Virus record (IMG/VR): IMGVR_UViG_2595698635_000001
Coordinates: 6,839-70,838 of that record
DNA length: 64,000 bases
Origin: a virus
Taxonomy: Duplodnaviria > Caudoviricetes
Direction: 5' to 3' (one strand)
The number at the start of each line of letters is the position of its first letter. Position 1 is the stretch's first letter. Below the pieces are notes generated by a model. It was not told where the DNA came from. It saw only the letters and a list, made by a program, of their open reading frames with translations, and did not search any database. This document shows positions 10,684-28,374 of this stretch, piece by piece. The position numbers and the translations under genes are program-made.

Positions 10684-11001
10684 ATGGCCAAGATCACCGT
10701 CGAGGGAAGCATCCTGCCGAGCGCGTTCCTGGCGCGCGGTGACCGCGCCGAGGTCAACGACAGCGACCCCACCGTGCAGTACCTGATCGACCAGGGCTAC
10801 GTGAACGTGGTCGACACCGAGACCGGCCAGCTGGAGCCGCCCCCGGTCCCCGAGGCCCCGAGCCCGAACGCCAGCACCAAGGACTGGCAGGCGTTCCTCA
10901 CCAGCCAGGGCGTCGACTACCCGACCGAGGGCGACGGCTCCGGTCGCAACGAGCTGGTCGCGCTCTGGGAGCGGACGATCAATCCGCCCCCGGCTGAGTG
11001 A
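10684..11001 (+). CDS. Hypothetical protein with C-terminal HeH/LEM-like motif
   Basis: GAGGAG RBS; PSPNASTKDWQAFL...RNELVAL. Confidence 0.65.
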   Translation: MAKITVEGSILPSAFLARGDRAEVNDSDPTVQYLIDQGYVNVVDTETGQLEPPPVPEAPSPNASTKDWQAFLTSQGVDYPTEGDGSGRNELVALWERTINPPPAE

Positions 11002-11411
11002 CCGCGCGCATCCGCGCCCGCGTCGAGATTGACGAGGCGGCGCTGGAGCGGGAGTCGGGGCGTGATCTGCGCGCGTTCCACCGGTCGCTCACCCGGCGCA
11101 TCGCCAATCAGGCCCGCGCCGACGTCCCCGTGCGTACCGGCAACCTCGGGCGCACCATCGGTGAGATGCCTCAGGTCTACACCCCGTTCCATGTGAGCGG
11201 CGGCGTCGAGGCCACCGCCGACTACGCGGCTGCCGTGCATGAGGGGTCGCGGCCACACCGCATCGCCGCCCGCAGCGCCGACGCGCTGCGCTTCGTCTGG
11301 CACGGGCGCGTGATGTTCCGCAAGTCCGTCTGGCACCCCGGCACCCGAGCCCGCCCGTTCCTGCGCAACGCCGCCCGCCGGGTCGTCGGCGCTGACCCGC
11401 GCGTCCACTGA
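10998..11411 (+). CDS. HK97 gp10-like tail/neck component
   Basis: PVRTGNL, YAAAVHEG, HPGTRARPFLRNA motifs. Confidence 0.75.
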   Translation: MTARIRARVEIDEAALERESGRDLRAFHRSLTRRIANQARADVPVRTGNLGRTIGEMPQVYTPFHVSGGVEATADYAAAVHEGSRPHRIAARSADALRFVWHGRVMFRKSVWHPGTRARPFLRNAARRVVGADPRVH

Positions 11412-11526
11412 GTTATCCGACTCGGTGCTACCCTCGGGCGTGAGGTGAGTGTTCCAGCGAGGCCGGAACTTAAAGTCGGAGGCGACCGGCGCTCACCGTG
11501 ACCTCAGGGCTTCGGGAAGGAACCAC

Positions 11527-12204
11527 ATGGCTACGTTCGGTGCTGGCGGCAAGAAGATCGAGGACGACGCGGATCAGCTGATGCCGCCCGCCGACCTCAC
11601 CGAGCGCGACCCCGACCCCTACGGCGACAACGAGCCCGGTGAGCCGGTCATCGTGGGCGAGGTGACCCCGGTCGAGGACCAGGTGGCCCAGGTCAACGAC
11701 GACGAGTACCCGGCCCGCCCGTTCCGCGAGGACGAGCCCCGCTCCGAGGGCGCGGTGGCCCGAGTCGCGCCGGACCCCGAGACCGCCGACGAGAAGCAGG
11801 CCCGGCTGGCCCGGCTCCGCGCCGAGCTGGCGGCGGCTGAGGCCGAGGACGCGCCGGACACCGGCACCGCCGTGGCCCTGGTCGAGAAGTGGGACGTCAC
11901 CAAGGACACGGACGAGACCTGGCCGTATGACTTCCTGGAGTTCGAGGGCGACAAGCTCGGCGTCCGGCTGCCGCAGAAGCAGGCCCTGGCGGCGTTCTCG
12001 CTGGCCAGCTCCAAGTACGTCAGCCTCGGGGTCAAGAATGACCTGACCGGCCTGTTCATCGCGCGCCACCTGAGCCCCGAGAGCTACGGGCGCGTGTTCT
12101 CCCGCCTGATGGACCCCGACGACTCGGCCTACACCGTCGAGACCGTGGGCGAGCTGTTCAACGCCATCGTGACGGCCAGTGTCGAGGCCGACAAGTCCGA
12201 GTAG
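11527..12204 (+). CDS. Tail assembly chaperone
   Basis: GAAGGA RBS; acidic protein immediately before tape measure; no second frameshift ORF follows. Confidence 0.7.
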   Translation: MATFGAGGKKIEDDADQLMPPADLTERDPDPYGDNEPGEPVIVGEVTPVEDQVAQVNDDEYPARPFREDEPRSEGAVARVAPDPETADEKQARLARLRAELAAAEAEDAPDTGTAVALVEKWDVTKDTDETWPYDFLEFEGDKLGVRLPQKQALAAFSLASSKYVSLGVKNDLTGLFIARHLSPESYGRVFSRLMDPDDSAYTVETVGELFNAIVTASVEADKSE

Positions 12205-12231
12205 CGGTCATCCATCGGATAGCCTGACCAG

Positions 12232-27688: not shown

Positions 27689-28060
27689 TTGTACGATCCA
27701 CCGCCTGGGTATGACGACTGCGAGTCAGACGCCGAGGACCATCCGACACCGCCCGGCCATCCGTACCGTGAGCTGGTGGTCGACGGGATCGGCATGACGC
27801 TCCACGCGCGTAAGCCTCTCCCGAACGCCATCCCCGCGCTGGCCGGGGCGGCGAACAGCAAGGTCGGGCCTCAGATGAGGATTGACCAGCTCGACATCTT
27901 CGTCCAGAACCACCTGGCCGAAGGCGAGTTCGAGCAGCTGCTGGCCAAGATGATGGACCCCGACCAAGACATGCCGCCGGACACCATGCTGAGGGTGAGC
28001 CGGGCGATTGCAACGGCGGGTACCGCCCGCCCTACACGGCGGTCATCTACCTCGCGTTGA
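27689..28060 (+). CDS. Tail assembly chaperone paralog (G-like)
   Basis: Aligns by eye with the C-terminal domain of 11527-12204; GGGAG before TTG start. Confidence 0.65.
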   Translation: MYDPPPGYDDCESDAEDHPTPPGHPYRELVVDGIGMTLHARKPLPNAIPALAGAANSKVGPQMRIDQLDIFVQNHLAEGEFEQLLAKMMDPDQDMPPDTMLRVSRAIATAGTARPTRRSSTSR

Positions 28061-28374
28061 TGACCGCTCACAACTGGCGGGCTGTCCGCGCCCGGTACGC
28101 GGACAAGGGGATCGCTGACCCCATGGGCCAGGTGACCACGATGCACGCGGTGCTCGACGTCATGGAGCAGATCGGCGCGGAGTCCAGCACGAACGGGGCC
28201 AAGACCGCCGCCGAGGCGAAGTCCGAGATCACGCGGTACTTCGACAAGCTCTACAAGCCGGACATCACCACGCGCGTGATCGACGGCGACGGGTACATGC
28301 CGCCGCCACCTGGGTTCTCCGAGGAGGAGATGGAGGCCAGCTTCGATGCGTTCCTGGCGGGCGGTCATCACTAG
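28033..28374 (+). CDS. T-like chaperone ORF, probably reached by -1 frameshift (alternative start 28057/28060)
   Basis: -1 frame has typical GC3 codons from 28033; no RBS before 28057. Confidence 0.55.
   Translation, partial: YTAVIYLALMTAHNWRAVRARYADKGIADPMGQVTTMHAVLDVMEQIGAESSTNGAKTAAEAKSEITRYFDKLYKPDITTRVIDGDGYMPPPPGFSEEEMEASFDAFLAGGHH

Follow-up and report, generated by a model that had tools for sequence, protein, structure and literature searches.

A displaced tail assembly chaperone pair in Cluster B-type actinophages, probably joined by a programmed -1 frameshift at a single proline codon

Gene content of the locus and of the pre-tape-measure region

The DNA analyzed here (the window) is a stretch of 64,000 nucleotides (64 kb) drawn from a 70,838-bp virus record. 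Over a tested 2 kb it shares 95% identity with Mycobacterium phages 39HC, 40BC, Hosp and Julie1 (Julieunavirus, Bclasvirinae); for many Cluster B phages the figure is ~70%. The features discussed below are collected in Table 1. In 39HC the gene order runs from the major tail protein through connectors, two genes labelled ‘tail assembly chaperone’ in RefSeq and the tape measure gene to four minor tail genes; these are followed by five small genes, gp33 and gp34, a ‘tail fiber protein’ and a ‘minor tail protein’. The two open reading frames studied here, ORF1 and ORF2, are the homologues of gp33 and gp34, each labelled ‘hypothetical protein’, and in the window the pair begins 9.5 kb downstream of the end of the tape measure gene.

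Table 1. Coordinates of features in the window.
Feature	Coordinates	Strand	Basis
Pre-tape-measure chaperone paralogue	11527..12204	+	phrog_1118, PF23781
Tape measure protein gene, 1989 aa	12232..18201	+	ORF list; 39HC homologue annotated tail length tape measure protein
ORF1, predicted 123-aa tail assembly chaperone (‘G’ form)	27689..28060	+	Pfam PF23781, phrog_915
Candidate shift motif CGC CCT AC	28028..28035	+	single occurrence in window; 45 other split loci
Predicted ‘T’ part, 113 aa + stop, DUF7240	28033..28374	+, -1 frame	Pfam PF23888, phrog_941
Predicted RNA hairpin	28038..28068	+	RNAalifold, single-sequence folding, covariation

ORF1 starts at a TTG with GGGAG 6 nt upstream and ends at a TGA at 28058-28060. 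Its protein matched PF23781 (Phage_TAC_16) with 149.9 bits (E-value 3e-44; residues 1-115 on model positions 1-114 of 114; the Pfam gathering cut-off is 27 bits for both PF23781 and PF23888) and, besides its PHROGs family, gave weaker matches to the tail assembly chaperone phrogs 1118 and 21090. The conserved domain stops at residue 115, the Pro of GTARP, and the final eight codons (TRRSSTSR) form an out-of-frame tail. ORF2 as annotated could start only at TTG 28057 or ATG 28060, and sequence inspection found no GGAGG-like run ahead of either codon, in agreement with the first-pass annotation of this DNA, which had described the frame as lacking a ribosome-binding site. ORF2 matched PF23888 (DUF7240; E-value 2e-45) with 153.9 bits, and the T part read from the Tyr codon at 28033 matched it with 153.6 bits (model positions 1-101 of 104). 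Pfam keeps PF23781 and PF23888 as unrelated families and gives no function for DUF7240; phrog_941 (233 positions) covers both halves without a gap, ORF1 on positions 1-117 and the T part on positions 118-225.

The same annotation regarded ORF1 as a paralogue of the chaperone encoded ahead of the tape measure gene. This was borne out by BLASTP (27% identity over 77 aa, E-value 1e-7) and by the profile comparison that it had proposed, in which PF23781 scored 136.5 bits (E-value 5e-40) against the 251-aa frame at 11449-12201 that contains the pre-tape-measure gene, and 149.9 bits against ORF1. A phrog_1118 ‘tail assembly chaperone’ match begins at residue 27 of the 251-aa frame (position 11527), and the chaperone start is likely ATG 11527, behind GGGAAGGAAC. 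An acidic low-complexity extension of ~120 aa (11449-11930) precedes the TAC_16 domain; the chaperones of Rhodococcus phage Tonitrus and Gordonia phage Clawz carry a comparable N-terminal extension. As had also been noted, the pre-tape-measure gene lacks a T partner: 23 nt beyond its stop, at 12227, the -1 frame is closed, and the gene's end is overlapped by no further + strand frame. A separate observation concerns 10998-11411, the product of which matched phrog_5 (‘tail completion or Neck1 protein’, E-value 3e-19) and no chaperone family. Its 39HC homologue, gp21, carries the RefSeq label ‘tail assembly chaperone’, which on these matches is probably a mislabel.

Coding phase and predicted RNA structure at the junction

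The first-pass annotation placed a change of reading frame after GCC CGC CCT at 28025-28033, and these coordinates and codons are exact. Beyond CCT the 0 frame reads ACA CGG CGG TCA TCT ACC TCG CGT TGA, and the -1 frame reads TAC ACG GCG GTC ATC TAC CTC GCG TTG ATG and runs into ORF2. The description of the 0-frame codons as atypical held as well, ACA making up 1.1% of Thr codons in 12 long genes of the window; CCT is itself rare among the 439 Pro codons of 12 long genes (23, 5.2%). From the upstream stop in the -1 frame, 49 codons before TAC, to TTG 28057 there is no ATG, GTG or TTG. An open -1 frame is by itself within chance in DNA of 69% GC, and the comparative signals are beyond chance. 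The frame relation was dropped as evidence, since the common 4-nt and 1-nt gene overlaps both put a downstream gene in the -1 frame and the relation alone therefore proves nothing.

For the comparison we used 15 annotated phage loci (Cluster B subgroups, Gordonia phages, an M. abscessus prophage, Taptic and StAugustine), 29 loci from IMG/VR, and ReqiPine5, Tonitrus, Clawz and Evaa; prophages were represented by M. abscessus prophages within the phage collection. CGCCCT(AC) followed by an open -1 frame was kept in all split homologues examined, and the motif is present in 45 split loci other than the window (L001-L010, L012-L036, L038-L044 and L047-L049), a count that overstates independent events because the sampled loci are phylogenetically related and in which some entries are one phage present in two collections. 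The first 43 split sequences comprise 36 distinct 150-nt junctions. CCT never changes, while the preceding Gly, Thr/Ser and Ala codons vary freely. The two loci in which the halves are fused in frame both lack the motif, StAugustine reading CGC CCA TAC and L037 reading AGG CCC TAC.

The pattern of variation changes phase at the motif. Upstream of it, column entropy was highest at codon position three of the 0 frame (1.26, vs 0.77 and 0.64), and downstream it was highest at codon position three of the -1 frame (0.93, vs 0.52 and 0.66). The 0-frame tail after CCT is unconserved, with a length of 8 codons in 27 loci, 6 codons in 5, 1 codon in 5, 3 codons in 4 and 9 codons in 2, and no T-frame stop occurred in 46 split sequences. 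The T frame begins with Y-x-A-V-[IV]-x-[LI]-[AS], of which Y1, A3 and V4 were invariant in 14 diverse sequences that are 36-67% identical. The first available start in the T frame lies 24 nt after TAC in 33 of 43 split loci, 27 nt after it in 5, 9 nt after it in 4 and 90 nt after it in Taptic; measured from the position of the Tyr codon, it lies at +129 in ReqiPine5, +63 in Tonitrus and +69 in Clawz. In these four phages the conserved T-frame residues W15, R19 and G26 are ahead of the first start, so that independent initiation cannot make the conserved part of the protein. The first-pass annotation had staked its proposal on conservation of the -1 frame upstream of 28057, and this stretch is conserved among the split homologues examined.

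A hairpin is predicted immediately downstream of the motif. Its stem pairs 28039-28047 with 28059-28067, with inner pairs 28049-28050/28056-28057, and stands 5 nt 3' of CCU. The window sequence folded with a dG of -17.9 kcal/mol (z -4.4; none of 200 shuffles as good), and RNAalifold independently predicted the 9-bp stem and the two inner pairs from 24 diverse split sequences, in which the gap between site and stem is free of indels. Three pairs have changed on both sides: pair 14-38, whose two bases both fall at synonymous sites in the -1 frame, is divided evenly between GC (12 sequences) and CG (12) and is never broken; for pair 17-35 the counts are CG 20 and GC 4; and pair 18-34 has gone from AU to GC in Taptic. 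Across the alignment 98.4% of cells were paired and 17 cells carried double changes. The covariation score of 0.278 was reached by none of 500 shuffles, and sliding the partner by 1-3 columns reduced it to ≤ 0.073. Single-sequence folds were significant for the window, Taptic, Wooper, Rosebush, ReqiPine5, Clawz and Evaa. At the Tonitrus junction the hairpin was not significant (z -0.56; 56 of 200 shuffles folded equally well), and it was absent from the fused StAugustine junction (z -1.4).

We regard this hairpin as a putative frameshift stimulator, on the basis of its covariation and of its distance from CCU, which is fixed, whereas the positions of stops and starts shift among loci. The annotated ATG of ORF2 lies within the 3' arm and the ORF1 stop at the border of loop and arm; because the 3' arm holds that ATG, the hairpin could instead serve translational coupling or occlusion of the start.

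Fused homologues and relatives with the pair ahead of the tape measure gene

Both Pfam domains occur in one frame in StAugustine gene 43 (230 aa) and in L037 (222 aa), which read GTARPYTAV and GTARPYSAV, respectively, and at both loci the DNA is one base longer at the junction than in the split form. A search with the L037 fusion returned 65 proteins: 14 clusters with both domains, the query's own included (213-228 aa), 50 proteins with TAC_16 alone and one odd chimera. All 14 fused clusters read GT[A/G]RPY.AV at the junction. The junction predicted in the first-pass annotation for the shifted product, TARP/YTAVIYLAL, is hence encoded in a single frame by these 14 protein clusters and by StAugustine. 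An earlier search for longer proteins with ORF2 as the query had returned none; it was a false negative, as the clusters that emerged with the L037 query make plain. StAugustine (L011, PV251870; fused gene at 1195-1887) is a 101-kb phage outside Cluster B, and downstream of its fusion lie homologues of the same genes.

A tblastn search with the StAugustine fusion matched 521 records. All 39 non-self matches listed fell in two pieces across two ‘hypothetical protein’ genes, and the ~520 records derive from phages of Mycobacterium, Gordonia, Rhodococcus, Tsukamurella and other hosts. None of the GenBank records inspected joins the homologues of ORF1 and ORF2; all show two separate genes. Fused forms occur, and a single base at the junction separates them from split forms; this would also fit gene fission in progress, in which an ancestral single gene lost one base, ORF1 stayed functional and ORF2 is a decaying or restarted remnant. 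We consider this very improbable, since the split form is spread across ~520 phage records from several host genera, no T-frame stop has appeared in the 46 split sequences, and DUF7240 still scores 153.9 bits in the window and 49.6-90.4 bits in the most distant loci scanned (StAugustine, ReqiPine5, Tonitrus and Clawz), against a cut-off of 27; the covarying hairpin likewise argues for maintained function.

Two relatives carry the pair in the place expected from other long-tailed phages. In Tonitrus and Clawz, a PF23781 protein annotated ‘tail assembly chaperone’ lies immediately ahead of the tape measure gene and ends in SARPT, with CGC CCT AC at that point, and the next ‘hypothetical protein’ is PF23888 DUF7240 in the -1 frame. 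Since the pair stands directly before the tape measure gene, TAC_16 and DUF7240 would be the canonical G/T pair of these phages, and the pair together with its motif in this position indicates that DUF7240 is the predicted ‘T’ part. The window pair (27689-28374) is displaced, as the first-pass annotation had proposed: it lies after the minor tail genes and not between the major tail protein and tape measure genes, where Tonitrus and Clawz have it. The annotations of Tonitrus (L047, 168-970) and Clawz (L048, 129-949) are recent and without a join, and in both the annotated start of the second gene is an ATG further downstream, at a cost of >20 conserved codons.

In Rhodococcus phage ReqiPine5 (L046, GU580943) the homologous codon stands in CGC CCT TTC, which gives the canonical heptamer C_CCU_UUC, with a strong hairpin downstream. 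Most of the DUF7240 frame of this phage (19012-19347; 101 aa counted from the slip site) carries no annotation, GenBank having just a 56-aa gp35 over its 3' part, 120 nt after gp34.

We weighed these data against the possibility that ORF1 and ORF2 are two independent, translationally coupled genes without a fusion protein, with reinitiation at TTG 28057 or ATG 28060, melting of the hairpin by ribosomes terminating at TGA 28058-28060, and an RNA constraint on the 5' arm as the cause of the conservation upstream of the start. Coupled genes classically overlap as TTGA/TGATG does here, the start codon lies within the 3' arm of the hairpin and is kept at +24 or +27 in 38 of 43 split loci, and database annotations uniformly show two genes. 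Coupling nevertheless leaves unexplained why the rare CCT and the C ahead of it, both 5 nt outside the hairpin, are invariant, and why the -1 frame has a protein-like substitution pattern from TAC onwards. It is also at odds with the 21-43 conserved T-frame codons that precede any start in Taptic, ReqiPine5, Tonitrus and Clawz, with natural fusions that are colinear exactly at the junction, and with a hairpin that keeps its distance from CCU while stops and starts move. Taken together, we judge coupling without a fusion protein to be unlikely, though less so than fission.

AlphaFold2 modelled the natural fusion with a pLDDT of 89.7 and a pTM of 0.81, using an alignment of fusions, ORF1s and T parts. 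A helix predicted at residues 115-127 begins at the junction Tyr, so that a start at the TTG or the ATG would remove most of it. Foldseek against BFVD returned the tail assembly chaperones of Arthrobacter phage SilentRX and Gordonia phages Lilbeanie and Phendrix as full-length matches (E-values 2e-4 to 9e-4; 203-207 alignment columns). Against the PDB nothing fell below an E-value of 0.4, and VIA-align comparisons, which covered the solved HK97 chaperone (2ob9) and YqbN (3klu), were weak and in the chance range (2ob9_B, Z 3.6 over 76 residues with an rmsd of 4.2; 3klu_A, Z 3.6; 3fgx_B, Z 5.5).

Proposed mechanism and comparison with known systems

Xu, Hendrix and Duda reportedly described in 2004 a conserved tail assembly chaperone frameshift of long-tailed phages. 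In that group the G/GT frameshift is, to our knowledge, considered close to universal. We propose, with a probability of about 0.85, that ORF1 and ORF2 are a G/G-T-type tail assembly chaperone pair expressed through programmed -1 ribosomal frameshifting. Comparison of the loci shows a switch of coding phase at the motif, a naturally occurring fused protein and a covarying hairpin; the predicted function of the pair in tail assembly is well supported by homology and by the relatives with the canonical gene position. The evidence says that DUF7240 is the candidate frameshift extension (T part) of TAC_16 chaperones.

In the proposed mechanism most ribosomes would finish ORF1 and yield the 123-aa TAC_16 protein (G form). 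A fraction would slip by -1 when the tRNA-Pro on CCU (28031-28033) re-pairs with the overlapping CCC (28030-28032), a G:U wobble pair giving way to a G:C pair if the tRNA has, as presumed here, a GGG anticodon. The next codon would be UAC (28033-28035), after which translation would continue in the DUF7240 frame. The G-T product would be join(27689..28033, 28033..28374), of 115 + 113 = 228 aa, with the junction GTARP-YTAVIYLALMTAHNWR and the junction-spanning peptide AIATAGTARPYTAVIYLALMTAHNWR; trypsin does not cut Arg-Pro. The conserved GC-rich hairpin 5 nt downstream probably supplies a pause or tension that stimulates the slip. We infer the slip itself, the tRNA species, the efficiency and the partner proteins.

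The first-pass annotation had called the site non-canonical, and rightly so: the window has C CGC CCU in place of an X_XXY_YYZ heptamer, and re-pairing is by C_CCU only. CGC cannot re-pair in the -1 frame, which makes this a predicted single-codon slip site. Sites at which one tRNA alone re-pairs are usually inefficient. At B. subtilis cdd a -1 shift takes place at CGA_AAG, where only the second codon re-pairs (A_AAG), and at E. coli dnaX (A_AAA_AAG) a stem-loop a few bases downstream stimulates shifting; in both cases the codons are for Lys and a Shine-Dalgarno-like stimulator lies upstream. The window site resembles cdd in its single re-pairing codon and dnaX in its downstream hairpin, and differs from both in using a Pro codon and in that the G-rich run upstream is variable. 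A role for this run, ~10 nt upstream, as a Shine-Dalgarno-like stimulator was considered and not claimed: its sequence is not conserved and changes with the encoded residues (GGCGGG, GGAGGG, TGGGG, AGCAGG). A hungry-codon effect of the rare ACA in the A site was set aside, the codon after CCT varying among ACA, ACC, ACG and ACT as the -1 frame dictates. Recoding by RNA polymerase slippage, a +2 shift or a hop would give an identical protein, and nothing specific speaks for any of them. With no homopolymer longer than CCC at the site, and with C_CCU_UUC of ReqiPine5 being a standard substrate for tandem -1 tRNA slippage, we regard these routes as the least probable of the alternatives considered.

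The pair resembles lambda gpG/gpGT in that a short and a C-terminally extended chaperone would share the N-terminal domain, and in that the extension lies in the -1 frame without a start of its own; as in the lambda-type arrangement, ORF2 overlaps the end of ORF1 and has conserved coding ahead of its starts. The predicted product sizes of 123 and 228 aa are typical of this type. It differs from lambda in its slip site, C_CCU followed by AC with no X_XXY_YYZ heptamer, and in its position, the Cluster B-type phages examined having the pair after the minor tails and an unshifted paralogue in the canonical place. The pre-tape-measure paralogue would have lost, or never had, the T extension, and with that paralogue lacking it, the shifted pair of this lineage would be the one that sits after the minor tail genes.

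Among mycobacteriophages, an annotated -1 chaperone frameshift is given for ORF24/25 of the Cluster A phage First (PMC3585329), which is like the window pair in host range, gene class and shift direction; unlike the window pair, other mycobacteriophage clusters (such as that of First) are annotated with joins, recognized slippery runs and a pre-tape-measure position. Two genome announcements report Cluster B1 phages without a chaperone frameshift (PMC10793310, PMC12352053). The PRFect paper describes, in general terms, many SEA-PHAGES genomes without joined chaperone genes, and the motif list found there contains no single-codon Pro slip site with a hairpin (PMC10274946). The paper on the relative CRB2 mentions neither frameshift nor chaperone, and in that on the B2 phage Vic9 the chaperone appears merely in a list of structural genes. 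In the openly searchable literature neither this frameshift nor DUF7240 was found to be described.

A tentative extension of the main reading is that Cluster B-type phages divide chaperoning between two loci: the pre-tape-measure TAC_16 gene would encode an unshifted, N-terminally extended, G-like protein, and the displaced pair would supply G and G-T through the C_CCU slip and hairpin, maybe for a client other than the tape measure protein. The displaced pair lies directly before the tail-fibre and minor-tail genes and may therefore chaperone a different extended tail component. Were this extension true, it would be the first case in which a frameshift sets the stoichiometry of a second tail assembly line. 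In either case C_CCU_AC with a hairpin would constitute a new class of bacterial -1 shift site, common to hundreds of actinophages and missed by heptamer-based finders. Cluster B, among the largest clusters of mycobacteriophages (~500 genomes in the collection searched), has been treated in genome announcements as an accepted exception to the chaperone frameshift; on the proposed reading the frameshift would be present there, displaced and disguised. DUF7240 and phrog_941 would gain a role as the T extension, and two ‘hypothetical protein’ calls would be corrected in ~520 records, the Tonitrus and Clawz genes ahead of the tape measure gene among them. The gene exists in fused form, in split form with a canonical heptamer (ReqiPine5) and in split form with a non-canonical site; these would serve as natural controls for testing the amount of shifting that a chaperone system requires.

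Two further proteins deserve mention. The best BFVD match of the fusion was A0A7G8LFD8 (236 aa, E-value 5e-8, 227 columns), which may be another single-ORF or joined G-T protein of a sequenced phage. Metagenome protein P0065 (187 aa) combines an unrelated GTPase-like N-terminal part with the last ~60 residues of a Cooper-like DUF7240 and is probably an assembly chimera.
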